From an uncultured Methanosarcinaceae archaeon (lineage in GTDB: Archaea > Halobacteriota > Methanosarcinia > Methanosarcinales > Methanosarcinaceae), in the NCBI GenBank assembly GCA_963733675.1, contig CAVTET010000001.1, positions 160,001-224,000 on the forward strand: a stretch of 64,000 nucleotides of DNA, in the 5' to 3' direction. A program made the translations under genes and the position numbers. A model generated the notes under the pieces. That model did not search any database and had not been told where the DNA came from. It saw nothing but the letters and a program-made list of their open reading frames with translations. Positions 13,982 to 29,060 of the stretch are shown in pieces. Every line of letters begins with the position of its first letter. Positions within the stretch are counted from its first letter, which is position 1.

Positions 13982-14653
13982 CTCATTCCTTATGATAATT
14001 TCTAATACCATTCAAATCAGCAATTAATTACATTTTTTATTCGTTATCAAATATTTTGATCCAATTCTTAACACGTACTTTAGATTTAGCTAATTTTGTA
14101 TATTTATGCTTGATAGACTCTCGGTGTCTTATAACAAACTTGGTTAATTATATTTAAATTTCTTTTAAATTTTTTTTATATAATCTAAAGTAAATTTAGG
14201 TAAGGTGAATAGAATGACAAGAATACTATATAATATTAATATCCAATTTTTTTGCCTTTTTGACCATAATGCATGAACGATGTTTTTTGGGTTATTTAGT
14301 ACAACTATAATATCAAATTATTTTTGTAACATTTAAGATATAGTTCTCTTTGCTTTCTTGAGCTGGGGTATAATATAGTCTCTAACCGGCAAACCATCCT
14401 TTTTGATCTTAGTAGTGATTTTCGGGACTTGTAAGGTTCGGAACGACTGCTTTTTATAAAAAAATTTATAAAATATCGATTTCATAACTCACAATAATTT
14501 TTAAAAAAATTAAAGGGCAGAATATTAAAACTCGATATTAATTTATTTCAGGATTAAGGATTTTGGAACTCGCTCTCAAACCACAAAACCAGGATTCAGG
14601 ATCAATTTCAGAATGGAAAAAATAAAATGTGGGAATAAAATGTGGGATATGAT

Positions 14654-16585
14654 ATGGAACAGATAGCAGATGAACAAATCAATGAATCCGATAGCATGTC
14701 CATGCTACAGGAAATTAATGAAAAAAGCATTGATCCTGCCAGTCAGACCATGCTTCATAAAGCTGAGCAGGAAGGTATAGAGACTGCTTGGGATCGATAT
14801 GAGAAACAAATCCCCCAGTGCAGTTTCGGACAACTTGGAATTTGCTGCCGGAATTGCAATATGGGCCCATGCAGGATAGATCCCTTCGGTGAAGCTGTCG
14901 AGAAGGGAATTTGTGGCGCTACTGCAGATATTATAGTTGCAAGAAATCTTCTGAGGACCATTGCTGCAGGTGCAGCCGCTCATTCAGATCACGCAAGGGA
15001 CGCAGTGCTAACCTTTAAGAAAATGAGTGAAGGAGAAGCTGGAAATTACACTATCAAAGACAAAGCAAAGCTACTATCTATTGCCTCTGAATATGGGATT
15101 CTTACGAAGATGAAAAGCTGTGAGGAAATGGCATCCGAACTCGCAGATGCGCTACTTCTTGAGTTTGGAAAACAAAATGGTCCCCTCCTGTGTACAAGGC
15201 GGGCTCCTGAGCCGCGGCTTAAATTATGGACTGAACTTGGAATAGAGCCTAGGGGGATTGATAGGGAGATTGTTGAATGTATGCACAGAACTAATATGGG
15301 TGTGGACAATAATGCAACTCACATTCTGCTACATGGACTGCGTACAGGACTGTCGGATGGCTGGGGAGGATCGATGATTGCAACAGATGTTCAGGACATA
15401 CTTTTCGGAACCCCACAACCGCGAAGGAGCACTGTTAATCTTGGGGTACTTTCTATGGATAAAGTAAACGTGATAATCCATGGGCATGAACCCATTCTTT
15501 CGGAGATGATCGTGGAAGCCTCTGAAGACCCCGAGCTCCTTAAACTTGCAAAGAAAACAGGGGCAGCAGGCATAAATGTTGCAGGGATCTGCTGTACTGG
15601 GAACGAAAACCTGATGCGTCATGGGACTCCAATAGTAGGAACCTTCCTTCAGCAGGAACTGGCAGTAATCACTGGAGCCGTGGAAGCTATGGTCGTAGAT
15701 GTCCAGTGCATTATGCCCTCACTAGGCGACCTTGCAGGCTGCTACCACACAAAATTCATATCCACGTCACCAAAGGCCGACTTTCCTGGGACTGTGAGAA
15801 TGGAATTCTATGAAGATAGAGCTTATGAAACCGCAAAAAAAATAGTAAGGATAGCCGTCGAAAACTTTTCTTCCCGAAATCCCGAGAAGATAAATATCCC
15901 GAAAGAAAAGCAGGAATGTATGGTTGGTTTCAGCGCTGAAGCCATACTTAGTGCGCTTGGTGGAAGCCCTGACCCTCTCATTGAGGCAATAAAAAACGGG
16001 ACCGTTTGGGGAGTAGGTGCGGTCGTGGGCTGCAATAATGTAAAAATAAAGCATAACTATGGGCATGTCAATCTTGTTAAGGAACTTATAAAAAACAACG
16101 TTCTTGTGGTTACAACCGGTTGTAATGCAATTGCCTGTGCAGAAGCAGGGCTTCTTGTTCCGGGAGCCTCCGAACTTGCCGGTGACGGGCTAAAAGTAGT
16201 ATGTGAGGCGCTTGGTATACCTCCTGTACTGCATATGGGTTCCTGCGTTGACATCAGTCGCATTCTGCTACTTTCATCAATCCTTGCAAGCCGACTGGGT
16301 GTAGATATAAGCGACCTTCCAGCAGCAGCAGCTGCTCCTGAATGGATGAGTGAAAAAGCAGTCAGTATCGGGGCCTATGTAGTCGCCTCAGGAGTTCTCG
16401 TTGTTCTAGGCACTGTTCCGCCTGTTCTCGGAAGCCAGGCAGTTACAGCCCTTCTGACAAACGGTTTAAACAATGTTGTCGGAGCAAGCTTTGCGGTTGA
16501 GCCTGATCCCATTAAAGCCGCATACCTGATGCTGGCACATATTGACGGGAAAAGAAGGTCATTGGGCTTGAACTCAGTCAGGTGA
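14654..16585 (+). CDS. cooS: Anaerobic Ni-Fe carbon monoxide dehydrogenase catalytic subunit (monofunctional type)
   Basis: D/B-cluster Cys pattern CSFGQLGICCRNCNMGPC...GICG; C-cluster ligands in GHEP, GICCTG, DVQC, VGCNN, TGCNA, GSCVD; start may be 14642 or 14654. Confidence 0.96.
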   Translation: MEQIADEQINESDSMSMLQEINEKSIDPASQTMLHKAEQEGIETAWDRYEKQIPQCSFGQLGICCRNCNMGPCRIDPFGEAVEKGICGATADIIVARNLLRTIAAGAAAHSDHARDAVLTFKKMSEGEAGNYTIKDKAKLLSIASEYGILTKMKSCEEMASELADALLLEFGKQNGPLLCTRRAPEPRLKLWTELGIEPRGIDREIVECMHRTNMGVDNNATHILLHGLRTGLSDGWGGSMIATDVQDILFGTPQPRRSTVNLGVLSMDKVNVIIHGHEPILSEMIVEASEDPELLKLAKKTGAAGINVAGICCTGNENLMRHGTPIVGTFLQQELAVITGAVEAMVVDVQCIMPSLGDLAGCYHTKFISTSPKADFPGTVRMEFYEDRAYETAKKIVRIAVENFSSRNPEKINIPKEKQECMVGFSAEAILSALGGSPDPLIEAIKNGTVWGVGAVVGCNNVKIKHNYGHVNLVKELIKNNVLVVTTGCNAIACAEAGLLVPGASELAGDGLKVVCEALGIPPVLHMGSCVDISRILLLSSILASRLGVDISDLPAAAAAPEWMSEKAVSIGAYVVASGVLVVLGTVPPVLGSQAVTALLTNGLNNVVGASFAVEPDPIKAAYLMLAHIDGKRRSLGLNSVR

Positions 16586-16591
16586 TTTGCA

Positions 16592-17107
16592 ATGAAAGAT
16601 TTAATGATACGGCCCGAACGCTGCCTAGGATGTCGCTCCTGCGAGATTGCCTGTGCTATTGCCCATTCAAAGAGTAAAAGCCTTTTTTCAGCTTTGGGAG
16701 AACAGCCGGCTCCAAAAAAATGCATAAATGTGGATTGTTCACCTAATCTTGAAATTTCCATTCCGATAACCTGCCGTCACTGTGAGAACGCACCTTGTGT
16801 ATCGGTTTGTCCCACAAAAGCTCTTTCCCAGAATATAATCACCAACATTGTAAACTACAATCCTGAGCTCTGCGTAGACTGCTGGACCTGTTCCATGGTT
16901 TGCCCTCGATTTTTGCTCCTATACAGGTTGATTCTTGTCATCGGCTGTTGGACCAGTTCCATGGCCTACAATCGTCGAGTGATCAGCAGACAAACTGAAG
17001 TGGGGGTAAAATGTGATCTCTGCAATGGTAGGGAGTTGCCTGCCTGCGTCGAGGCCTGCCCTACTCATGCTCTCGTATTTGCCGAGGTAAAAGATATTTT
17101 GGGATAA
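16592..17107 (+). CDS. cooF: 4Fe-4S dicluster electron-transfer protein, CooF-like
   Basis: Four Cys clusters (CLGCRSCEIAC, CRHCENAPCVSVCP, CVDCWTCSMVCP, KCDLC...PACVEACP); 6 nt downstream of cooS. Confidence 0.88.
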   Translation: MKDLMIRPERCLGCRSCEIACAIAHSKSKSLFSALGEQPAPKKCINVDCSPNLEISIPITCRHCENAPCVSVCPTKALSQNIITNIVNYNPELCVDCWTCSMVCPRFLLLYRLILVIGCWTSSMAYNRRVISRQTEVGVKCDLCNGRELPACVEACPTHALVFAEVKDILG

Positions 17108-18282
17108 AACGCATCGAAACTGACCTGAATATCTCACCGTTGATGCAGGAAGAGTCCTTATGATGACTTTCAGCTTCCCTGAAAACATTATGGAAATATG
17201 ATATTTGTGCCTTTAGATGTCTGAAAAGAAACAAGATTTTGTTTTCTAACATAGAAGGGGAATCAAAATTTAGCGTTGATTCCTAGCAATTAACAAACAT
17301 CAATAAAAAAACCCAAAAAGCAACAATAAGTCTCATATTTCTCTTAGATATAACTTTAGTTCTTGTTCGTGAATCATTATCAAATCTGAAAAAACGATTA
17401 TCTCCATCTTTTTGGGGGAAATACAAGACATGATTTTGCTTCTGTTTTCAGTAACTCATGGATACTACCCCTAAACGGTAATATCATTTTAAGAACCTCA
17501 TTTTTACTTCATAACAGTTGTGATCAAATATTTAGGTTCTCTATTTATTACGGATCATTTAATAGTGGTAGTTGTACTTGATAGAATACTTCTCCATTGT
17601 AAGAAGATAGGCATAAAGGGAAAATTAAAGGCTTAAAGAGAGAAAGAGACCGGAATAAAAATTGGAGTTCCATATTTCTAATTTTATAGAAATCCGTGAA
17701 AATTGGTGAATATTATATCCAAATGTGTGAATTTTTAAACGGTTAAATTGGGGAAAAATGAACAAGTCCTAACACCCTGCAGGGTCTTTCTGAGTCTCTA
17801 GCTGCAGATAAGGGGTATGCAGATTTTAATGGACCATTTTTTTCCATGACCGTAAAGATCAGATCATTTCCCTTATTAATTTCCTTAACCACTATTCAAA
17901 AAACATTTCCCTAAGAGCGTCTTCAAGAATAATTTGGGAATAAGACGACATTGGTACACCGAGATTTAAATCATAATATAAAAAAAGTGTTCAGGAAAGA
18001 GGATATTATGCTTAACCGATGACGCATGAATTAAAATATTTAATTTTTGACTAACTTTGGAATCGCAGTCTAGCTGCAAATAAGATTTTTTTAGGCACTT
18101 TTTGCCGCAAAATATGGGTTTTAATATTAACAATGCTTATCGTATGTCGTCAGTTCACATATGTGATGATATTTTCGGGGTGGTGGAAGGTTCTGCAATG
18201 AACTGCATATCCATTATACCTAGAGCAGATAGAAATGTGAATTTAAAACTAGTAAGAACACATGAATCTAAAAGGTTAAAGT

Positions 18283-18756
18283 ATGAAGGGAGAGATATTT
18301 GAAAGAACGAAGCATATTGTCCTAGACATTGATGAGCATGCAGTTGAAATAGCCTCTGAAGTTCTTGATGACGAGCTTGCCATTGAAATAGCCTGGGAAG
18401 CTATTAATTTAGTTGAACTGTATATTATTATGCGTATAGTAGAACATATGCTCATGATAGCTGAGTATATGCTTCTGGAAGTTAAAACTAGTCCTATTCA
18501 CCTGATTGAACCAAGACATGGTCAAAATATGGAGTTAATAGTTGATTTCTTTGAAAAAGGAGAATCCCAGCTACGGCAAATATTCAGAGCATATAGCGTT
18601 TTAGAGGCAGAAATCAATGTGCTTAAATCTTTAATGACTGGTTCTATGAATGAGATATTGCAGTATAACAATTTATTCATGGAACCTGGTAGAGCATCAG
18701 CTTATCCTTCGGTTTCGCATTTAATCGAAGCCTTGCCCTACACCTATTGTTGTTGA
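18283..18756 (+). CDS. Divergent corrinoid-protein N-terminal cap (B12-binding_2-like) domain protein
   Basis: EIFERTKHIVLDIDE...EIASEVL and QNMELIVDFFEKGESQLRQIFRAYSVLEAEINVLKSLM resemble the four-helix cap of MtbC/MttC-type corrinoid proteins; no DxHxxG motif. Confidence 0.45.
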   Translation: MKGEIFERTKHIVLDIDEHAVEIASEVLDDELAIEIAWEAINLVELYIIMRIVEHMLMIAEYMLLEVKTSPIHLIEPRHGQNMELIVDFFEKGESQLRQIFRAYSVLEAEINVLKSLMTGSMNEILQYNNLFMEPGRASAYPSVSHLIEALPYTYCC

Positions 18757-19109
18757 TTGAATTCATCTTCAACATTACTAACTTCATTTTTTTTGTTGTT
18801 ATATAAATTACTATCAACACAATGATTTCAAGGAATAAGACCTATTTTTGGTGCCGAATATTTTCAAGCTGACCTTACCTTTGTTTTCTCTCATTTCCCC
18901 TTTTTTTGATAGATGGTGGCAAAAAGAATTTAATGAATCTTCTTTGTTTATCGAGTTCTTTTACTTGGATTGATGTTCTCACACAAAAAATGACATAAGT
19001 AGTATTTATGCATTTGAACCAGCTCAATGCAGAAAGCATCTGTATTTGAGGTTATTTTTCCCCTCTAAATAGGTTTACGTGTTTGAACACTATACTAGTA
19101 TACTATACG

Positions 19110-19313
19110 GTCACAATTGTGACTAAATTGTTACCAGGGCCGCTGTGAGGCTACGCAATGGACTGCAGATCCATCTAATCAAGGTTCGATTCCAGGATCT
19201 TATTTGAAAGGTTTTCATAGATACTAGAAAATCTTTGAGGTGATATTTGCCTCATAAAGAAGGTTCAAATATAAGTAAAGGTTAATAATAAGTATAGATT
19301 CACAATTGTGAAT
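19110..19313. promoter_or_regulatory. Pair of palindromic operator-like sites with core TCACAATTGTGA
   Basis: GTCACAATTGTGAC (19110-19123) and ATTCACAATTGTGAAT (19298-19313); the palindromes are seen directly, the regulatory role is inferred. Confidence 0.5.
19133..19204 (+). pseudogene. Degenerate tRNA-Cys(GCA)-like sequence
   Basis: 27-nt identity (AGGCTACGCAATGGACTGCAGATCCAT) with the tRNA-Cys at 19704, plus GGTTCGATTCC; acceptor stem cannot pair. Confidence 0.75.
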
Positions 19314-19550
19314 TAAGTGTTGCAGATTCCTAGTGATTTCACTCGTTAGGTATGTACTTAACTCGCTGGGTAAGGTGATCAACTCAAAGATGTGAAAGCT
19401 CTAGTCGTAGATGAACAGACCCTATAATTATTCTCAACCCCCACTTCTTGCAGAAGTCCACAATATGCCACCATCTTCTCAATGTGGCGATATCCAAAAA
19501 TTAATGCCGCTTTAAAAGGGATTCATTGGGAGAATTGGCAACTAAATTAG

Positions 19551-19640
19551 AGAGGATTTAGATAACTCCCTAAATTTCGTCATATGCTTCTAAAATCAAT
19601 ATAAATTATTTTTGAAAATAGGGATTTATCGAAATCCTCT
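19551..19640. mobile_element. 90-bp MITE-like element with 22-bp terminal inverted repeats
   Basis: AGAGGATTTAGATAACTCCCTA ... TAGGGATTTATCGAAATCCTCT (20/22 complementary). Confidence 0.75.
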
Positions 19641-19703
19641 ATAAGATTGTGTATATCCGCGAGATATAAGGCACAAAATCTATGGTTCAAAACTAAAACG
19701 GAT

Positions 19704-19775
19704 GCTGAGATGGCGGAAAGGCTACGCAATGGACTGCAGATCCATTTTACTCCGGTTCGATTCCGGGTCTCAGCT
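19704..19775 (+). tRNA. tRNA-Cys (anticodon GCA)
   Basis: Acceptor GCTGAGA/TCTCAGC with U73, D arm GCG/CGC, anticodon arm ATGGA-CTGCAGA-TCCAT with G37, T arm TCCGG-TTCGATT-CCGGG. Confidence 0.95.
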
Positions 19776-19788
19776 TAGAGGTAATCTC

Positions 19789-21176
19789 ATGGATCTAAGA
19801 ACACAAAAGACTTTTGAGGCGCTTTTTGCCCTTGAAGATATTCGGGAGGTCCTCAGACAATCACTTCCAAATGTCACAAATCCTGAAGAAGAACATTCCA
19901 TTAAGGAAGGTGTAGACAAAGTCAGAAAGATCCTGGATGAGATAGAGAACGGTACTGGAACTCCACAAGTTAGGAAGATAGCAGATACTATTGATATCCG
20001 ATCCAGAGAAGAAACATGCATCAACATACAGCCAATTCAAGCGGCTGGGAGGCTTACTCCTGAAGCACGAAAAGCGCTTATAGCGTATGGAGATGGCTAT
20101 TCCACCTGTGATGCCTGCCGCAAACCTTTCAGGCTGGACAAAATTAGAACTCCGCCTATCGCACCGTTTCATGAACAACTTGCTAGCTTCCTTAATATGG
20201 ATGTTGCACGCGTAGTGCCAGGTGCAAGGCGTGGTTTCCAGGTAGTGACTTCCACTCTTATCAATAAAGGTGATTCAGTGATAGTCTCATCTCTGGCTCA
20301 CTATACTGAGTTTCTCGCTGTAGAAGAGGCAGAAGGAACAGTAAGAGAAGTACCTGTGAACGAGTACAATGTTGTGACTGCAGATGCAACTGCTGAGAAG
20401 ATTGAGGCGGTAAAGCAGGAAACAGGCAAACTGCCTGTACTGATAATGATTGATCACTTTGATTATCAGTATGCCAATGAACATGATGTAAAAGGCATAG
20501 CAAAAGTTGCACATCAGTATGATATTCCTTTCCTATATAACGGCGCATACACTGTTGGCGTCATGTCAGTGAATGGAAAGAAAATTGGCGCGGATTTTGT
20601 CGTAGGCTCAGGCCACAAAAGCATGGCATCACCTGCACCGTCAGGAGTGCTGGCAACAACCGATGAATGGGCTCCCAAGATATTCCGAACTACGCAGATG
20701 GTTGGTGATGTCACAAACGTAAGTTTGGCATCAAAGAAGTCGAGATGCTTGGATGCACACTAATGGGTTCGACATTGATAGGTATGATGGCTTCTTTCCC
20801 TACTGTCAAGAGTAGAGTACAGAATTGGGAAGAAGAAGTAAAGAAGTCAAACTATCTGATTGATGGTCTACTTGCTGTAGAAGGTGGTAAGGTTCTCTCA
20901 GAATACCCACGCAAACATACCCTGTCAAAAATTGACACAAGTAGAAACTTTGATATCATTGCACAGGGTCATAAACGCAAAGGGTTCTTCCTTTCAGACG
21001 AGCTTTCAAGCAAGGGCATTGTTGGAGAATTTGCAGGAGCTACGCGGGTTTGGAAATTAAACACATACGGGCTTTCCTGGGAGACAGTCCGCTATGTAGT
21101 AGATACATTCCAAGGAATTACTGAGAAATACAAACTTCAAGTAAACAGGGAGAATGATTCCAATGGTAGTAAATAA
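19789..21176 (+). pseudogene. pscS: O-phosphoseryl-tRNA:Cys-tRNA synthase (SepCysS) with N-terminal extension, frameshifted near 20715
   Basis: INIQPIQAAGRLT, GYSTCDAC, SGHKS (PLP Lys) in one frame; KFGIKEVEMLGCT...KLNTYGL in the next frame; adding one A at ACAAAC restores a single ORF; RBS GAGGT before ATG 19789. Confidence 0.9.
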
Positions 21177-22458
21177 CTATAAACTAGGAACTCTTGCCCT
21201 TCATGCTGGACAGATTCCAGATCCAGCTACAGGAGCACGAGCAGTACCGATATATCAAACTACGTCTTATGTCTTCCGAGACACTGATCATGCAGCTAAT
21301 CTTTTTGCCCTCAACGAGCTTGGTAATATCTACACCCGTATAATGAACCCAACTACTGACGTTTTCGAACAGCGTATAGCTGCTATTGAAGGTGGCACAG
21401 GAGCACTTGGAGTTGCGTCCGGTTCAGCTGCAATAACCTATGCTCTGTTAGCGATTACTAGGCTTGGGGATGAAATTGTCTCTGGGAACAACCTCTACGG
21501 CGGAATCTATGAACTTTTTAATTACACTTTCCCTAAGTTAGGAAGAAAAATTATATTTGTTGATTCAACTAATCTGGAAGCTTATCAACATGCTATTACT
21601 GAAAAAACGCGGGCGATTTATATTGAATCAATAGGTAATCCAAAATTGGATATTCCGGATTTTCAGGCGCTTGCAAATATTGCCCATAGAGCTGAAATCC
21701 CACTTGTTGTAGATAACACGAGTGCTGTCGGGCTTGTTAGGCCTATTGATCATGGAGCAGATATCATTGTGCATTCAGCAACCAAATTTATCGGTGGGCA
21801 TGGGAATTCAATCGGTGGTTCTATAGTCGATTCCGGAAAATTCTCCTGGAACAATGGCAAGTTCCCAGAATTGACAGATCCTGATCCCAGCTATCATGGT
21901 TTGAAATACTGGGATACGTTTTCAGAATTTCCGGGTCTTGGTAATGTAGCATTTATCTTTAAAGTAAGGCTGCAACTTCTTAGGGATACAGGTGCTGCTC
22001 TTTCACCTTTTAATGCTTTTCTATTGCTTCAGGGACTTGAAACACTGCATCTGAGGATACAGCGGCACTCTAAAAACGCCCTCAAGGTAGCAAAATATCT
22101 TTCAAGTCATCCAAAAGTCTCATGGATTAATTATCCAGGTTTACCTGATCATCCAAGTCATGAGCGTGCATCTAGATACCTAATAGGTGGTTATGGTGCA
22201 TTGATAGGTTTTGGGGTGAAGGGCGGTATAGAAGCAGGTAAAACCTTTATAAACAATCTAAAGCTGTTTTCACATGTTGCCAACATAGGAGATTCCAAAA
22301 GTCTTGTCATTCATCCTTCAACTACCACACACCAGCAGCTAACCTCAACTGAGCAGGAGGCAACAGGCGTTACGCCAGATTACATACGCCTTTCCATTGG
22401 TATTGAGGATGTCGAAGATATAATCTCAGATCTGGAACAAGCTCTTGAAAAAGTGTAA
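21154..22458 (+). CDS. O-acetylhomoserine aminocarboxypropyltransferase / O-acetylserine sulfhydrylase (MetY/Met17 family)
   Basis: [40 protein letters not shown] (PLP Lys), [20 protein letters not shown]. Confidence 0.93.
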
Positions 22459-22577
22459 CTATGAGTTCTAGTTAAAATAATATGAGAAGATCATTTTATT
22501 TTAGGTGAGCAATGTTTAGTCACTTTATTTTGATGAGATTTACTTCATCAATCTATTTTTCACAAATTTGGACTCTG

Positions 22578-23822
22578 TTACAGCGGTTCCATCATTTTCG
22601 TTGGTATGAATTTATGATCTTGAATACGATTTTTAAGAACCATACATAGCTTTTCTGCCCTGGCTCTATCTGATTGTCTTAGCGAAATAGGGACAGATCC
22701 TTCAGCCAAATTTATGGATCCCAGTCTTGCACGGAATACCCCTCCAGGACATTGTAGGGTACAAGTACCGCAGTTGATACAGAGATGTCTGTTGATGACA
22801 AAACGATCTGAAATTGCTTCTGTAGGACACGTGTGCATTGCAGGACAATCGGGATGGTTCAGACACCTGTCCTTGTCGACCCGGATAACTTTATCTGTGC
22901 CTTCCCAGATATGTCCGTAGTTTACTTTTGTGTGAGCAGTACGCCCGTTTATGTCTGATACAGGCAATGGAACATCACGGTCAGTAATTTTTAATCCCAA
23001 TAGAATCTCTTCATCCAAAACAGGTATTGGAACTGCAAGTGAGGTTAGACATTCAGGACCATGTGAAGTTTTCATTCCGCCCATCATGTCAGGGTCCATG
23101 CCCTTCATATCTGCAAAAGCCGAGACATTCGGTTTATCTGGGCTGGATCTGGTTCCTTTTCCCATAATATATCCCGGAGCTCCATTTAAGAGGACTCTTG
23201 TACCTATACCTATTATCCTATGGGATGGATCGTTCTGTAAAGGGTTTATTTCACCACATCCAGAGACGGACGTTTCTGTGAAAGGACCTGTTAGACCTGT
23301 CACAGAGAATATAGTGCTTATCGTAGTTGCAGTGGGATTTATCAGTGCATGATAATTTTTAAATGCAAGTCTAGTGGTAATTATTCTGGCAAAGTCAATA
23401 TCATCAAGTGTAACCCTATTTTCATAAGTTCTGCCGTGTGCTTCAACAAAAATGTCGATCTCTTTTCCTTTTACAAGATCTCTAAAAAGATGTCCTCCGC
23501 CATATCGGTCATCTGCATGCGATGTCCCGTGAATGACAAGGTCCACAACTCCAAGACGTTCGTTTGGACAGGGGCCAGGCTGAGCAGGCACACCATTTAG
23601 CCAAATGGAATCCGCTTTTTCAAAACTACATTTTTCCGCAACAGGTACCATCATAACTGCCATAGTACCGGACATCACGCCAAATGTTCCTGTCGTAACT
23701 ACATCCACATCTCTAGCAGTTATCTTTTGACCATCACGTACAATGGATTTGAGCTCTGCAGCTGTTAGAATAATTGCTTCTTTGCGGGCAATTTTCTCAT
23801 TTATTTCGTCAATAGTCTTCAT
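22578..23822 (-). CDS. COG1900/DUF39 protein with ferredoxin insert (methanogenesis marker 16, ComF-like)
   Basis: KTIDEINEKI, DVDVVTTGTFGVMSGT, GPCPNERLG, SGCGEINPLQND, two C-terminal Cys clusters (CLNHPDCPAMHTCP, CINCGTCTLQCP), RQSDR; no CBS domains. Confidence 0.82.
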   Translation of the reverse strand: MKTIDEINEKIARKEAIILTAAELKSIVRDGQKITARDVDVVTTGTFGVMSGTMAVMMVPVAEKCSFEKADSIWLNGVPAQPGPCPNERLGVVDLVIHGTSHADDRYGGGHLFRDLVKGKEIDIFVEAHGRTYENRVTLDDIDFARIITTRLAFKNYHALINPTATTISTIFSVTGLTGPFTETSVSGCGEINPLQNDPSHRIIGIGTRVLLNGAPGYIMGKGTRSSPDKPNVSAFADMKGMDPDMMGGMKTSHGPECLTSLAVPIPVLDEEILLGLKITDRDVPLPVSDINGRTAHTKVNYGHIWEGTDKVIRVDKDRCLNHPDCPAMHTCPTEAISDRFVINRHLCINCGTCTLQCPGGVFRARLGSINLAEGSVPISLRQSDRARAEKLCMVLKNRIQDHKFIPTKMMEPL

Positions 23823-23846
23823 AGTATCCCGATCTATTCAATATTC

Positions 23847-24504
23847 TCATAATATCCTTAAATCTTCAAGCCGGACGTGAGTTCCAAAGGGTTTCTGAAA
23901 TATAGTGTTCACAAGAGCAGTATGTGCCAGATCAATCATACAGTTGCCAGGCAGAAAATATTGGCGAGTTCCAAGGACGGGAGGATTTGTTATGATACTT
24001 GCAACTCCTTCGAAAGCATGGATGTGGTATGCTTGGACATCATGGCAGTCTTCTTTTCTTGCGGCCATTGGACCTACAGTATGACACTCAAGTATACCTG
24101 TTACAGGGTTTGCGCTCAAAACCCTTAAAGCATGATAAAGAGGGCAGCCTGGTCCTGCTGGACGACCAATTACTAGGTTCCTTTTTAATCCCCCACAATT
24201 CGACAAGTTCTGCCCTAAAAGGTACTATAAATTTGCGTGCCGATGGTTCACCGGGGAAAGGAAGAAGGACAAAGTCATATTCTTTCCCAGCCACATATAT
24301 GCCGGAATAAGTGGCATTTCTTACTCGAATCGCGGGATTTTCCTGGATCCCGATATTATCCTGGTCCATTATATTCTCTTTGCTGTAGAATGGGCATAGT
24401 TCTAGCTCTGCTGACCTTTTTCCAAGACGTTCAATAAAATCAAAACATGTATGTGAGCTACAAGCCCCACAATTTTCCCCTGGTGGACTCCATTTATTAA
24501 CCAT
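23847..24504 (-). pseudogene. Fe-S cluster-binding protein, frameshifted near 24180
   Basis: N-terminal PGENCGACSSHTC...CPF Fe-S motif; reading continues in a second frame (NLVIGRPAGPGCP...FLPGNCMIDLAH). Confidence 0.8.
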
Positions 24505-25212
24505 CAGTCACCTCAGTATATAGGATCTGGCATATCCAGTGACCTGATGACTCCAAAGTGATTTTTCCATCCGATCTCTTTTACCTATAAATCTCGTGCA
24601 TACGCCGAGTGGGGGTGAACCTCTGAGCACTATAGGTTCTGACCCCATATCCGGCTGGTTGGTAATCCGTCTCATCAGATATCTTAACCCGGTTCCCTAA
24701 ATTGCATTTGTCTCTACAATGTCAATATCAATATCTGGGACAACTTTTTTGATACCTCCCCTGAATACTTCTTTTTCCGCTTGTGACACAAGGTCGGTTT
24801 TGGTAACAACTGCGACATCTGCAAGAGCAAGCAAAGGTGCCATTTTGAGTGGTGAATTTGTTCCTGATATCGCGCTGATAACTGCAATTCCAAGAGATTG
24901 CGTTGTATAAGGGGTACACCTTAGACAGAGTCCTGCACTTTCGATTATCAGAAGATTTCTGGATAGGCTTTTGGCCCAGTTTAATGCGTCATCAAGTACC
25001 AGAATTCCCATGTGATCAGGACAAACATCTCCGGAATATACCTTTTTAACAGGAATATAAAATTCTTCTGCAAGTTCCTGATCTTCAGTTGCATGTACAA
25101 CATCAATTTTCAGAAAGGAGGGAAGTGTATCTTCAGGAAGATTTTTTATAATCTGGCGAATCACAGCAGTTTTTTCCCCACTTGGAGGACCTGCAATTAT
25201 GAGAAGCTTCAT
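24504..25212 (-). pseudogene. G3E/HypB-UreG-like P-loop GTPase with nonsense codon and frameshift
   Basis: AGPPSGEKT, FLKIDV, CPDH, IESAGLCLRC, TKTD; TAG at 24697-24699 followed in frame by GTGLRYL...LRGSPPLGVC, then a frameshift before EIGWKNHFG; original stop overlaps the next start. Confidence 0.8.
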
Positions 25213-26036
25213 TTAGAAGCCATACTCTGTACAACTGCAATCGTCAAAGCTTCCGAAGGACCAGAAGAGAAAACAGTTCCCAGCCTTATTTTCTCTCTTA
25301 TTTGATTGAGTTTTGTTTCAATTAATGTAAGATCTTCTATAATATCTTGCTCCTGTCCGATAGGTTCTATCACAGAGTGAACTCCTCCATTTCTCATCAC
25401 TATGCGCCTATCTGCTGTAAGAGCGAGATATGGATCGTGTGTTACAAGAACTACAGCCTTATTTCCTCCCTGAATAGCCTGCATAACACGGTTTTTGAAG
25501 ATGCCTGCATTTTCGATCTCATCGAGAAGAAGTATTGGAGTATCACCGATTATAAGTGCATCTGCGATCATAAGAGACCTAGTTTGGCCTCCGGATAAAC
25601 CGCTCATTCGACTCTTAAGACTGATTACTTCGCCCGTGAATGTATTTGCAAGATTTATTGTCTCACCAAGCAAATCTTCCTTACCAGGTCTCCGCGCTCT
25701 TATATGCATTAATAGGAATGCTTCGACTGTGAGGTCTGCCAAACAACGTGTGTTTTGGGTTATCATGGCAATCGGTTTGAAAGCAGGCTCCCGTATAAAG
25801 GACTCTGGAGGCACTTCCCCATTGATAAAAATCAATCTGCCCGTTACTGTATCTCCCTGTGCAAGGGTTTCAATATCATTAATAAAGGCTGATTTTCCTG
25901 AGCCTGTAGGACCCACTATTGATAGGGTATCCCCTGGTCTTATCTCTATACTGTCAAATCCTTCCTGCTCTCTAAACCTGTTTTTTCCAGATTGAATTGT
26001 AAGAGTGAATTGCTGTGTCCCAAATTGTTGTGTCAT
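25209..26036 (-). CDS. Stand-alone ABC-type ATP-binding protein
   Basis: Walker A GPTGSGKS, Q-loop ITQN, signature LSGGQ, Walker B LLLDE, H-switch VTHD; no permease gene nearby. Confidence 0.88.
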   Translation of the reverse strand: MTQQFGTQQFTLTIQSGKNRFREQEGFDSIEIRPGDTLSIVGPTGSGKSAFINDIETLAQGDTVTGRLIFINGEVPPESFIREPAFKPIAMITQNTRCLADLTVEAFLLMHIRARRPGKEDLLGETINLANTFTGEVISLKSRMSGLSGGQTRSLMIADALIIGDTPILLLDEIENAGIFKNRVMQAIQGGNKAVVLVTHDPYLALTADRRIVMRNGGVHSVIEPIGQEQDIIEDLTLIETKLNQIREKIRLGTVFSSGPSEALTIAVVQSMASK

Positions 26037-26338
26037 GTACTCAATTATCTATATCTGGATTTTATAAAGATTTCCTCAAATACTCAAAAATTAACCCTTA
26101 AAGGATATGATATCAAAAAAATTATCCTTTTTTTATTAAAATTTAATGGAAAATGGGAAAACGACAAATTAAAAATTGTCATTTTCTTCAATAATTGCCT
26201 GAAAGATTATCATTGCAACCGTAGATTCCGAAAAAAGGTTAACTGTTTAAAGACCAATCTGAGATTAATCACATGGAATCGAATGAATCAAATATCCCTA
26301 TGGGGCGTCAGGTCGCAGCCAGTGCAGAGCAAGCACAT

Positions 26339-27193
26339 GGTTCCGTTGCAAAAACTTCAACAAAATATGTAAATCTATAAGTGATTAATAAAAATCAAAA
26401 CATTCAAGGAAAATGTACTAACATTATAAAACTATACCAAATAATTGATTAATGTATTTGACTTCATTAAGAACAGAGTAATTTAAATCGATTACTTGTC
26501 CTTTTTTGATCATATTTATAGCTTCAATTCCTTTTAAAGTCTTATTAGCAGATCGAAAAGACTGAAATCCTAACATTGGATTAACGATTCTCTTTATAGA
26601 TCTGTGATCTTGTTCTATAATGTTATTCAAATACTTGATTTGTCGAATGCCTACGTTTTTAGGTAGTATTTTATCAATTTTTAGTTTATCTATAGCAGGT
26701 GGATAAGCTGAATTCTTATCAACGGTTATTAATCTTGGAATTTGATTATGATTAGAACTTAAAGCTTTCTTAAAGAATCTCTTTGCTGCTTTTCTATCTC
26801 GTTTTGAACTTAACATGAAATCAATTGTATCTCCATTTGAGTCAACTGCTCGGTAAAAATATTTCCATTTACCTTTTACTTTGATATAGGTTTCGTCAAC
26901 TCTCCATGAATAGTTTGTTAGTCTTAAATGTCTTCTTATCTTCTTTTCGATTTCAGGAGAATATTGATGTACCCATCTCATTATAGTACTGTGATCAACT
27001 TGAATTCCCCTTTCTATCATCATTTCCTTTAAATTTCTATAACTTAATGCATATTTTAAGTACCATCTTACATTCAATAAGATAATTTCCCCTTCATAAT
27101 GCTTCCATTTAAAGGAATTAGATAGCATGTTACTATCTTTGGTTTTCTTTTTATTCTATTGTATCATTAGAAAGGATTTTTTGCAACGGAACC
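26339..27193 (-). mobile_element. IS6-family insertion sequence, 855 bp
   Basis: Perfect terminal inverted repeats GGTTCCGTTGCAAAAA / TTTTTGCAACGGAACC enclosing a DDE transposase. Confidence 0.93.
26424..27128 (-). CDS. IS6-family transposase
   Basis: FKWKHY, LSYRNL, WRVDETYIKVKGKW, YRAVD, TVDK, NNIIEQDHR. Confidence 0.95.
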   Translation of the reverse strand: MLSNSFKWKHYEGEIILLNVRWYLKYALSYRNLKEMMIERGIQVDHSTIMRWVHQYSPEIEKKIRRHLRLTNYSWRVDETYIKVKGKWKYFYRAVDSNGDTIDFMLSSKRDRKAAKRFFKKALSSNHNQIPRLITVDKNSAYPPAIDKLKIDKILPKNVGIRQIKYLNNIIEQDHRSIKRIVNPMLGFQSFRSANKTLKGIEAINMIKKGQVIDLNYSVLNEVKYINQLFGIVL

Positions 27194-27314
27194 ATCTAAG
27201 CTAATTAAAATCTTAGGTCTCTTATTTGATCTTTATGCAAGCTAGGATATTAAGAGTTCAAATATAGTTTACCTAAACTTAAATATCTTAACTGTAATCT
27301 CCTCAAGGATTGGC

Positions 27315-28334
27315 GTGATTTCAAAAAAATTAATCGATCTTGGAGTGCTGGTGCTCAGGCAACATAACTCTCGTGGAAATTTCAAACCTCATATTTCAGT
27401 TAGGTTCAGGGATAATGAGGGGGATTTACGCATGTTTTCCATAGACACTACCAGGACTACAGGGAAACATTCATGTCCTGATGCTTATCTGATTACACAT
27501 GCTCATTCAGATCATCATGGAAAATCAGCTATGATATCCTCCAATTCGGTTTGTTCGGAAAAAACAGCGATCGCCCTTGAAATCAGGTACGATAGAAGAT
27601 ATGCTGGCAGTATTTTCAGGCTTGGAGATGAAATTGATTTAGGAAGGGTAAGGGTCAAGACTTTTCCTACTGAGCATACCGCCGGAGCGACCGCTTTTTA
27701 CTGGGAAAACGACGTAGGATCAAGGATTCTGGTTACTGGAGATATCAAAGATGCAAGTGACCTCCCTCCTTGTGATGTGCTTATCACTGAGGCTAACTAT
27801 GGGGACCCAGAAGATCCCAGCTGTCATTTTGAAGATGACTTTGAAGGCATGCAGTCTGCTCTTTTTGAACACGGATCAGTTGCTTTTGGAGCATATGAAT
27901 TTGGGAAAGCCCAGCGGGCAGTCAAACTCATCAGAGAATTTGGATATGAGGGAGCTATCCATATGGATGCAAGGACAAGAGCCCTTACAAAGAGCATGCT
28001 TGAAGATGCCGGGGAACTTGAAGGGCTTAGGTCCGGAGGAAATGATGGGGTTTTCATAGTAGCACCCTGGAACCTTAACAAGCTTCCGTTGAATATGAAT
28101 AAGTACGTTCTAAGCTGCCGAATGGATTATCCTTACCCTATTATAAGGATAAGTGATCATCTTGATGCCTGCGGACTTGAAAATATGGTCAAGAAACTTA
28201 ACCCTGAAGTTACTCTTACTTACCATCCAGGAGGTTATAGACCCTCCAAATTTTCAAAACATTTAAATTCAATCGGAATCGATTCGATATCCATAGATCA
28301 GATAGGTAATGTTTTAAGTAATGAATTTATTTAA
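27315..28334 (+). CDS. Metallo-beta-lactamase-fold hydrolase (beta-CASP-like)
   Basis: THAHSDH motif, EHTAG, VTGD, TEANYG, SDH. Confidence 0.85.
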   Translation: MISKKLIDLGVLVLRQHNSRGNFKPHISVRFRDNEGDLRMFSIDTTRTTGKHSCPDAYLITHAHSDHHGKSAMISSNSVCSEKTAIALEIRYDRRYAGSIFRLGDEIDLGRVRVKTFPTEHTAGATAFYWENDVGSRILVTGDIKDASDLPPCDVLITEANYGDPEDPSCHFEDDFEGMQSALFEHGSVAFGAYEFGKAQRAVKLIREFGYEGAIHMDARTRALTKSMLEDAGELEGLRSGGNDGVFIVAPWNLNKLPLNMNKYVLSCRMDYPYPIIRISDHLDACGLENMVKKLNPEVTLTYHPGGYRPSKFSKHLNSIGIDSISIDQIGNVLSNEFI

Positions 28335-28646
28335 AGCTGTGAGATTCAATTTTAATAATTAAATATCGATAACTTCGATATAAATATTAAATTCTTATAA
28401 TTTTAATACAGTAATTGGATTCAAAGAATTCAAATATAATAATTTTATTCAAACAACTTAGGTAATAATTTAGTTCCATTGACTTAAATATAATAATTCA
28501 AGTCCAATAAGTTAAATATGATGATAAATTGGAATAATTATAGAATACAAATATAATGAGCAAAATATATAATCCAAATTTGATATTTAAGTATAGTTCT
28601 TGCAAATTAAATCCCAGAATAATTGCCGTTCAGGAGTGTATATCGA

Positions 28647-29060
28647 TTGAGTAAGCAAAGTCCAAAATCAAAACCCATATCTGAACCAGCAAAAACTGCA
28701 GAAATTCTTACAAAAAATTCTGTCGTAAGCGCTGATACCTCAGAAAGGAAGAATCTTATCAAGGAAATTACACCTGAAGAGAAGCAAAAAGCCCATCGAG
28801 AGGGAATCATAAAGACATTAGTAGCTTCAGCACTTGGGATAATCGCAGGACTTATAGCATCCAGCTTGTATGGAACAGGAGAAAATAAGGCCTGGTATGC
28901 TATACTTATGATAGTTATAGGTTTTACATATTTTCTGCAGAAGCTTATCTATTCTCAGCTTAATATCGATACCATTGAATTCAAGTTTAAGGACTGGTTT
29001 TACGTTGAGTTCATAGTCATTGATTTCTTCCTTGTTACCTGGACTCTCCTCCTTAATTAA
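28647..29060 (+). CDS. Small membrane protein, EMC6-like
   Basis: Three hydrophobic segments, C-terminal KDWFY...FLVTWTLLLN; TTG start after AGGAGTG; upstream of ABCE1. Confidence 0.7.
   Translation: MSKQSPKSKPISEPAKTAEILTKNSVVSADTSERKNLIKEITPEEKQKAHREGIIKTLVASALGIIAGLIASSLYGTGENKAWYAILMIVIGFTYFLQKLIYSQLNIDTIEFKFKDWFYVEFIVIDFFLVTWTLLLN

Follow-up and report, generated by a model that had tools for sequence, protein, structure and literature searches.

A variable gene set for sulfur assimilation in a probably lineage-specific and partly decayed form in an uncultured Methanosarcinaceae archaeon

We analysed a stretch of 64,000 nucleotides from an uncultured Methanosarcinaceae archaeon (assembly GCA_963733675.1, contig CAVTET010000001.1, positions 160,001 to 224,000; hereafter the window), in which a tRNA-Cys gene and genes for SepCysS and a sulfhydrylase on the forward strand converge on genes for methanogenesis marker 16 (MMP16), an Fe-S protein, a GTPase and an ATPase on the reverse strand. 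By comparing the window's genome (G000, with C4 and C12 as further contigs) with other genomes (given as Gnnn), we conclude that a sulfur-assimilation gene set, variable within the window's genus, presumably Methanosarcina, is probably represented here by a copy that is specific to the lineage, rearranged and in part decayed. The set would comprise two units: the first, an operator-bearing promoter, a leader, tRNA-Cys, an N-terminally extended SepCysS and the sulfhydrylase, preceded by the small gene orf157 and the remains of a tRNA-Cys array; the second, an ABC ATPase, a HypB-like GTPase, a COG2000 Fe-S protein and an MMP16 of a class that we term class B. In the window's clade the housekeeping paralogues of these genes were not found, and the set was duplicated, after which its copies decayed in a complementary manner. 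The principal features of the locus are as follows.

19704-19775, + strand: intact tRNA-Cys(GCA), called by ARAGORN and matched by the Rfam tRNA model (56.7 bits); one of three tRNA-Cys genes in G000
19789-21176, + strand: SepCysS of the second type with a long N-terminal extension, pseudogene (NF006810)
21154-22458, + strand: O-acetylhomoserine/O-acetylserine (OAH/OAS) sulfhydrylase of the type found in this island (TIGR01326); sole intact copy in G000
22578-23822, - strand: MMP16 (ComF family), class B (TIGR03287); sole intact MMP16 in G000
23847-24504, - strand: COG2000-type Fe-S protein gene, pseudogene (PF04060 on the N-terminal fragment)
24697-25212, - strand: CobW/HypB/UreG-family GTPase, intact (PF02492); C12 twin 94.7% identical
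25209-26036, - strand: soluble ABC-type ATPase, intact (PF00005, 50.4 bits); C12 twin 92% identical
26337-27195, - strand: IS6-family insertion sequence, recognized by its inverted repeats; transposase at 26424-27128

The gene content of the two convergent operons had been proposed in an earlier note made from the DNA letters alone, and profile and ARAGORN searches recovered each of the families that it named. The MMP16 protein matches TIGR03287 with 505.3 bits (cut-off 363.95) over model positions 1-389 of 391, and PF01837 with 336 bits. The sulfhydrylase, an intact frame of 434 residues, scores 655.5 bits against TIGR01326 (cut-off 495.1) and 690.1 against the homocysteine-synthase equivalog NF006096, under that model's cut-off of 726. 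The GTPase matches PF02492 with 39.6 bits (cut-off 20.7) and the HypB model TIGR00073 with 46 bits, under the equivalog cut-off of 121.2; at most, it would be a G3E metallochaperone-like protein. The ABC ATPase has no membrane partner encoded adjacent to it.

The two units across the genus

A family search of 59 genomes of the window's genus, in which classes and types were tallied by hand, revealed two forms each of MMP16 and SepCysS. Class-A MMP16 proteins score 580-630 bits and are encoded beside comDE, as shown in G004; class-B proteins score 495-513 bits, occur in 27 of the 59 genomes and always have genes for the COG2000 protein, the GTPase and the ATPase adjacent to them. The two classes are 46% identical, and a tree built with 68 MMP16 sequences of the taxonomic class sets class B apart as a long-branch clade. 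The COG1900 core motifs of the window protein are conserved relative to class A. The second 4Fe-4S motif of the window protein reads C-x2-C-x2-C-x3-C, and His323, invariant in 14 class-B sequences, replaces the second cysteine of the first ferredoxin motif of class A; this arrangement suggests that the class-B cluster may be differently ligated. SepCysS divides into type 1, with open frames of ~390 residues, and type 2, with ~460-490 residues including an N-terminal extension; the types are 41% identical and type 2 is present in 30 of the 59 genomes. The window SepCysS is type 2, with ~60-70 residues before the core. Among the 53 genomes outside the window's own clade, our hand reading finds class-A MMP16 in 51 and type-1 SepCysS in 52.

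Both units are present in 24 of the 59 genomes, class-B MMP16 without type-2 SepCysS in three, type-2 SepCysS without class-B MMP16 in six, and neither in 26; these genomes are kin, and the counts overstate their independence. The earlier note had proposed a neighbourhood search for co-occurrence, and this came out in favour of a linked set: 24 of the 33 genomes holding either unit hold both, and eight (G004, G005, G023, G042, G046, G052, G073 and G074) have them on a single contig, separated by 6.6-11.4 kb. In the genomes inspected for gene order (G004, G005, G023 and G046) the units are divergent, with genes for radical-SAM, FemAB-like and NifX-like proteins, orf157 and a methyltransferase between them, ThiI downstream of MMP16 and SsuA nearby. 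The units also occur together in a genome of another genus, G156, which gave the only class-B match among 17 sampled genomes of that genus. Here they lie within ~12 kb on one strand of a larger cluster for cysteine, methionine and coenzyme M (CoM), in the order SsuA, MMP16-B, COG2000, GTPase, ATPase, Pst-like transporter, radical SAM, SufT-like, CysK, ThiI, MetX, PdxS, sulfhydrylase, type-2 SepCysS and two tRNA-Cys genes. The G156 enzymes are 74-84% identical in amino-acid sequence to those of the window and its orf157 30%; the other MMP16 of G156 is 46% identical. These data support the view that the two operons make up a set of sulfur genes which recurs, varies between genomes and is coherent in function, and which is probably transferable between genera.

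The convergent arrangement of the window is common to G000, G019, G055 and G067, and because the layout elsewhere is divergent, the convergent packing is a clade-specific rearrangement. The IS6 element to its right is 859 bp long, with perfect 18-nucleotide (nt) inverted repeats (100% complementary) and a single DDE transposase (NF033587, 278.8 bits against a cut-off of 125). Its right boundary had been placed at 27193, and the loose ends of read contigs at 27193/27194 agree with this. The 3.9 Mb of G000 hold 110 full-length copies, 16 of them at least 97% identical to that of the window, and in read contigs the element has ~100 times the depth of its flanks. On C4 and C12, truncated IS6 elements border the segments that were duplicated, and the window element occupies the place that a radical-SAM gene and the operon promoter hold in other genomes (G004, G156). 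The length of the inverted repeats, the single DDE transposase and the very high copy number are likewise features of the elements in IS26/IS6-driven rearrangement. Judging only by the position of the element, IS6-driven rearrangement is the likely cause of the convergent layout.

The abundance of this element raises the question of whether IS6 merely threw together two unrelated operons with neither a functional nor a regulatory link. Such a chance juxtaposition would accord with the confinement of the convergent layout to the window's clade, with the 110 IS6 copies, with the 72 kb that separate the units in G006 and with the scattering around G000 of the former neighbours, the ThiI, FemAB-like and NifX-like genes. 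We nevertheless consider it quite unlikely, given the co-occurrence and close spacing of the units across the genus and their presence together in G156. In addition, in the related genomes G004, G005 and G023, one and the same palindrome, described below, stands in front of the tRNA-Cys genes, of orf157, of the radical-SAM gene and of the ATPase start.

Loss, duplication and decay in the window's clade

The window's clade comprises G000 with G019, G055, G064, G066 and G067, at completeness values of 73-92% (G000, 92%). Its copies are monophyletic with full support (100/100) in both gene trees, that of the MMP16 operon and that of SepCysS. Class-A MMP16 was found in none of the six genomes, type-1 SepCysS in none of the six, and the core OAH sulfhydrylase, which elsewhere lies beside MetX, in none of the five that were searched. 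With these housekeeping paralogues not found, the sole intact MMP16 and sulfhydrylase of G000 are those of the window. A genome search for MMP16 in G000 recovered the window copy, a broken copy on C12 and an L-ASST-like COG1900 gene; a tblastn search for the sulfhydrylase recovered the window copy, which shares 65-67% identity with core enzymes from other genomes, and one 3' fragment on C12. The remains of sulfur genes on C12 (C12:142812-143278 and C12:113553-114257) consist of two out-of-frame MetX pieces and this 3' half of the sulfhydrylase. G000 has genes for cysteate synthase and ComDE outside the window, with no MMP16 beside them, and also encodes SepRS, MetX and CysK.

The check for second copies that the earlier note had suggested was productive, disclosing an additional SepCysS gene (pscS) on C4, a further MMP16 gene, which is broken, on C12, and three tRNA-Cys genes in all. 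Type-2 SepCysS was duplicated at the base of the clade (100/100 in the tree), giving a sulfhydrylase-linked lineage in the window, G019, G066 and G067 and a stand-alone lineage comprising the C4 copy of G000 and four others. G000 also has two copies of the MMP16 operon, one in the window and one on C12, whose nucleotide sequences are 90% identical. What survives is distributed among the three places. The window keeps tRNA-Cys, the sulfhydrylase and MMP16, with SepCysS and the Fe-S gene broken. C4 keeps SepCysS (G000:C4:734776-736161, intact as assembled), with a decayed tRNA-Cys and a truncated IS6 in the place of the sulfhydrylase. C12 keeps the Fe-S protein (G000:C12:128441-129100), the GTPase and the ATPase, and its MMP16 gene is interrupted by a TAG codon, at the position corresponding to residue 289, and by two frameshifts. 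A search of G000, which is 92% complete, gave no CysRS scoring over the family cut-off; with the window SepCysS broken and no CysRS found, the C4 SepCysS would be the only route to Cys-tRNA in this genome.

In the window SepCysS, an A run has lost 1 nt after base 20714, as placed by alignment with four intact relatives, and the gene is thereby divided into open reading frames (ORFs) at 19789-20763 and 20745-21176. The N-terminal part matches NF006810 positions 5-262 (406.9 bits) and the C-terminal part positions 265-396 (188.6 bits), in different frames. By eye, the first ORF carries the C-x2-C pair and the GHKS motif, and the second carries the GCT cysteine, with a numbering of the catalytic residues that we assume for the family; the C4 twin aligns with 3WKR across these motifs. 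By descent the gene belongs to the family, but it is a pseudogene. In the Fe-S gene, an A run near 24180 lacks 2 nt, which leaves ORFs at 24088-24504 and 23847-24206; the N-terminal fragment scores 33.9 bits against PF04060 and the intact C12 twin 43.4 bits. A 2-nt deletion near 24581 was considered as a second coding lesion and rejected, as alignments place the conserved start at 24504. The earlier note had counted SepCysS and the Fe-S protein among the parts of the island; both gene families are indeed present, but it overlooked the frameshifts in the two genes.

Both frameshift sites are spanned, with 0 gaps and no indel listed, by contigs from X1 and X2, two runs of study P1, and from X4, a run of study P2. 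As contigs of three runs from two studies share the lesions, these are not artefacts of a single assembly. The ratio of nonsynonymous to synonymous substitution rates (dN/dS) is 0.06-0.14 for the SepCysS lineages and 0.13-0.14 for the window SepCysS against its relatives, which shows that both lineages in the clade were under purifying selection; the lesion in the window SepCysS is therefore recent. The low ratio could also be taken to mean that the two apparent pseudogenes still function, the breaks being sequencing errors, boundaries of split enzymes or sites of slippage, and the short A runs that hold both lesions and the ATG at the start of the downstream SepCysS fragment would fit such a view. 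We regard it as very unlikely, since independently assembled contigs carry the same lesions and the break, as judged by eye, parts the portion of SepCysS with the pyridoxal phosphate-binding lysine from that with the third catalytic cysteine. Furthermore, the loss would be tolerable because intact twins exist elsewhere in G000, and the sulfhydrylase-linked SepCysS is also fragmented in G067.

The earlier note had taken the locus for a recently and horizontally acquired island that adds sulfur-insertion capacity to the housekeeping genes. Several observations accord with this: the units are variable in the genus (27 and 30 of 59 genomes), a single genome among 17 of another genus carries close relatives of the window proteins as well as a far more distant MMP16, the locus adjoins a tRNA gene and an insertion sequence, and second copies exist in G000. 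Taken literally, the proposal is nonetheless unlikely. The copies in the clade are monophyletic and the duplication dates to the clade base, which speaks against recent acquisition in G000; the housekeeping MMP16, SepCysS and core sulfhydrylase to which the island would be an accessory extra were not found in the clade; and two genes of the locus are broken. The G+C content of the locus (0.38-0.45) lies inside the window range (0.27-0.47) and gives no compositional sign of foreign origin. An integrative island at the tRNA gene is likewise not borne out: there is no integrase among the ORFs of the window, the repeats are of whole tRNAs, and G+C is ordinary. The tRNA-like fragments to the left are decayed members of a tRNA-Cys array and not attachment sites. 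The note had also bounded the island on the left by a miniature inverted-repeat transposable element at ~19585-19665; only a core of 19-25 nt (41 nt in one match) recurs, at 15 other places in G000, and the designation is not upheld. Of the proposed horizontal unit there remain its variability in the genus, its presence in G156 and its probable transferability, without a recent gain in the clade. We therefore retain the reading of the locus as a lineage-specific, rearranged and partly decayed copy of the variable gene set.

tRNA-Cys arrays and a candidate operator

The region upstream of SepCysS holds a further series of features that link the locus to its counterparts in other genomes.

18155-18166: palindrome-like site TCACATATGTGA, with 2 mismatches, from a pattern scan
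18188-18236, + strand: decayed tRNA-Cys, most distal array member; repeat D1, 61% identical to the reference copy
18283-18756, + strand: orf157, small conserved protein with an internal 39-nt tandem repeat, from the ORF list and a repeat search
19111-19122: operator-like palindrome TCACAATTGTGA, exact match, before a decayed tRNA-Cys
19135-19200, + strand: decayed tRNA-Cys, middle member of the former array; repeat family D1
19300-19311: operator-like palindrome TCACAATTGTGA, exact match, at the putative promoter of the leader/tRNA-Cys/SepCysS/sulfhydrylase unit
19312-19703, + strand: leader of ~390 nt, conserved in the C4 paralogue by alignment with the region upstream of that copy; a short repeat is inserted at ~19585-19665

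In other genomes, between two and four intact tRNA-Cys genes form an array around orf157, on the upstream side of type-2 SepCysS. With respect to orf157, the fragment at 18188-18236 stands where G006 and G046 have intact tRNA-Cys genes, and that at 19148-19196 is 86% identical to the live tRNA-Cys, in a place homologous to intact genes in G004, G005, G006 and G046. Neither fragment is called by ARAGORN or matched in Rfam at E<=1, and both are decayed members of a tRNA-Cys array. We rejected them as attachment sites because they match whole tRNA-Cys genes of the arrays in other genomes. At L034:11327-11397 of G023, ARAGORN calls a tRNA with a GTA anticodon, whose counterpart in the G004 array (L029:17713-17783) is tRNA-Cys(GCA); it looks like a copy of tRNA-Cys with a mutated anticodon.

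Homologues of orf157, at 30-85% amino-acid identity, lie upstream of second-type SepCysS in G004, G023, G006, G019, G046, G066, G067 and G156. The protein matches no Pfam or NCBIfam family, and a protein atlas search gave no lead (best score 0.88). Apart from the tRNA, no Rfam family was found at E<=1 in the leader or elsewhere in the searched sequence. The tRNA-Cys that adjoins SepCysS has no promoter of its own of the array kind, the nearest palindrome lying 270-400 nt upstream, and this spacing suggests a single transcript of leader, tRNA-Cys, SepCysS and sulfhydrylase. The layout in G004 is alike, with the palindrome at L029:17905, the tRNA at 18172 and SepCysS at 18256.

The earlier note had seen paired palindromes as the left border of the island. 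Two exact copies of TCACAATTGTGA are present, at 19111 and 19300, but they are operator-like sites and not borders. In the window 0.26 sites with at most one mismatch are expected, and two of 100 shuffles reach two. The 19300 copy lies ~30 nt downstream of a TATA-like box recognized by eye at ~19255-19268, and each of the distal array tRNA-Cys genes has a TATA box TTTAAATATT followed by the palindrome at -21 to -10, the position at which an archaeal repressor would block RNA polymerase. The palindrome also stands at the start of the ATPase gene in G004, G005 and G023 and before orf157 in G004 and G023, and three or four near-copies in tandem precede the radical-SAM gene that heads the MMP16 operon in G004, G005 and G023.

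Throughout G000 there are eight exact palindromes against 0.45 expected, the highest count among 60 palindromes of the same half-site composition, the next reaching three. Seven of the eight adjoin genes for cysteine, methionine or Fe-S cluster synthesis or for tRNA-Cys. The six sites outside the window are near the third tRNA-Cys gene, before MoaD-like and LarE-like genes, before cysK-cysE, between nifS-nifU and a small divergent gene (orf122), before metX, and at one non-sulfur location. Across 36 genomes of the genus we counted 211 exact sites, compared with 24 for the reversed control; a hand split of these genomes gives a mean of 8.9 exact sites per genome in those with at least one island unit and 3.2 in those without. 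G062 has 10 exact palindromes though classed as lacking both units. In each of two island-free genomes, G041 and G043, all three exact sites fall in the promoter regions of MetX-OAHS, NifU-NifS and CysK-CysE. The palindrome is over-represented, conserved across species and situated between the TATA box and the start of related genes, and it looks like an operator site for a transcription factor. Among the literature matches listed, the 10-mer core of the palindrome recovered only unrelated eukaryotic work and none in methanogens, and nothing relevant was listed for a sulfur regulator or operator in Methanosarcina.

A lead to the regulator comes from orf122 (G000:C4:284019-284387, L150:10019-10387, - strand), which lies 11 nt from a copy of the palindrome and is divergent from nifS-nifU. 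It encodes 122 residues with a stretch resembling a helix-turn-helix (HTH) and a cysteine-rich tail, is conserved beside nifS in G041 and G043, has a homologue that adjoins class-B MMP16 in G073 and has a paralogue (64%) at C4:119159. Its sequence matches are weak (P22_Cro, E 0.0058; a Cro chain, E 0.062; AimR and ArgP HTH, E 0.05-0.18), and a search of its structure model (pLDDT 72) against the Protein Data Bank (PDB) with Foldseek returned nothing at E<=0.001, the weak top rows being almost all HTH DNA-binding domains. We offer orf122 as a lead only, a candidate regulator of the genes that carry the palindrome.

Several points weigh against the interpretation of the locus developed here. The absence of the housekeeping genes means that they were not found in genomes of 73-92% completeness, consistently across five to six of them. 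Both the lesions of C12 and the intactness of C4 are as read in the assembly; runs X1 and X2 may be source samples of that very assembly; and contigs hide rare variants, so that part of the population could still carry an intact allele of SepCysS. In front of the window ATPase, the operator now has three mismatches and the native promoter region has given way to IS6, with a one-mismatch palindrome remaining upstream of the ATPase at C12:126767; in G006 the spacing of the units is wide. The RNA run X15 gave contigs whose similarity to parts of the sulfhydrylase, MMP16 and GTPase genes is only 95-97%; these come from a relative and therefore give no evidence of transcription of the window copy. 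Finally, the activities of class-B MMP16 and second-type SepCysS are putative, assigned by family.

Activity model, known systems and flanking genes

Family membership suggests a model for the activity of the set. The sulfhydrylase would convert O-acetylhomoserine and sulfide into homocysteine, with MetX encoded elsewhere, and MMP16 would catalyse the reductive thiolation of sulfoacetaldehyde with sulfide to CoM. The tRNA-Cys would serve as the scaffold on which SepRS and SepCysS, in G000 the C4 copy, synthesize cysteine. The ATPase, the GTPase and the Fe-S protein may mature MMP16 or supply electrons to it; an AlphaFold model of the COG2000 protein built with 11 close sequences was poor (pLDDT 36). 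Both units would belong to one sulfur regulon marked by TCACAATTGTGA over the likely transcription start, an arrangement that fits a repressor blocking RNA polymerase, and this regulon would switch the units together with the synthesis of cysteine, methionine and Fe-S clusters.

In the parts of the work on the ComF system that we consulted, MMP16 is shown to be the CoM synthase and L-ASST is called a secondary route, and the role of the ATPase, the Ni-binding GTPase and the COG2000 protein encoded next to MMP16 is given as unknown (PMC12068725, PLoS Genet 2025). The same four gene families stand together in the window operon. The activity was shown for the class encoded beside comDE, our class A, whereas the window protein is a class-B member, 46% identical and on a long separate branch; unlike class A, it is not beside cs/comDE and is linked to SepCysS and the sulfhydrylase. 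The searched text of PMC12068725 makes no mention of two MMP16 classes or of duplications.

For SepCysS, the portions of Mukai et al. (mBio 2017, PMC5424206) available to us report that genes for clade VII enzymes frequently neighbour sulfur genes and a gene for tRNA-Cys, that a fused SepCysSN exists and that SepCysS is duplicated in some methanogens. The window resembles these clade VII loci as described there, with a second SepCysS directly behind tRNA-Cys and beside a sulfur gene, and differs in that no tRNA-Thr-ED gene was seen in it. The N-terminal extension of ~60-70 residues resembles the fused SepCysSN of that account, a likeness drawn from the description, without reference sequences. 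SepCysE was not among the PDB sequence matches of the SepCysS query.

The core cysteine/methionine/Fe-S cluster of the genus (MetX-OAHS, NifS-NifU and CysK-CysE, as in G041 and G043) shares the promoter palindrome with the window, and its sulfhydrylase is 65% identical to that of the window; in G000 the cluster lies at C4:274-292 kb, minus the sulfhydrylase. Unlike the window, it contains no tRNA genes, SepCysS or MMP16 and is present in island-free genomes. The window locus appears to be the variable add-on to the regulon of the core cluster. Set against the literature as far as it was consulted, the new elements are the presence of two classes of MMP16 within a single genus, the coupling of the units both physically and in regulation, tRNA-Cys arrays with operators of their own, the candidate regulon, and the displacement of three housekeeping enzymes in one clade.

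It is possible, and we advance it only tentatively, that these features belong to an undescribed sulfur regulon with the ~120-residue orf122 protein as its regulator, and that a transferable two-unit add-on to it has displaced ComF, SepCysS and OAH sulfhydrylase in one soil/peat clade. The operator of such a regulon would lie over the starts of cysK-cysE, nifS-nifU, metX(-OAHS) and, unusually, individual tRNA-Cys genes. If this is true, the supply of tRNA for tRNA-dependent cysteine synthesis is switched with sulfur status, and the tRNA-Cys arrays under the control of TCACAATTGTGA point to a regulated tRNA supply for tRNA-dependent amino-acid synthesis; class-B MMP16, moreover, is a second, independently sufficient CoM synthase. 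The clade forms a natural experiment in this respect: with cs/comDE and only class-B MMP16, it predicts that class B is sufficient as a CoM synthase. The synthesis of CoM, cysteine and homocysteine in methanogens rests on poorly understood sulfide-insertion steps. As the operator and the candidate regulator are also present in the island-free G041 and G043, the proposal could be tested in a culturable member. The complementary decay of duplicates in an environmental genome ridden with insertion sequences is also a caution for calling pathways from a single locus.

Just to the left of the locus, at 14642-17107, the window encodes the catalytic subunit of a CooS-type CO dehydrogenase (715 bits), followed by a ferredoxin-like gene. 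To the right of IS6 the window encodes a protein of the MBL fold that weakly matches ligase-associated exonucleases (27315-28334) and an archaeal EMC6-like membrane protein (28623-29060), followed by ABCE1 and Hel308; these genes to the right are ordinary core genes.

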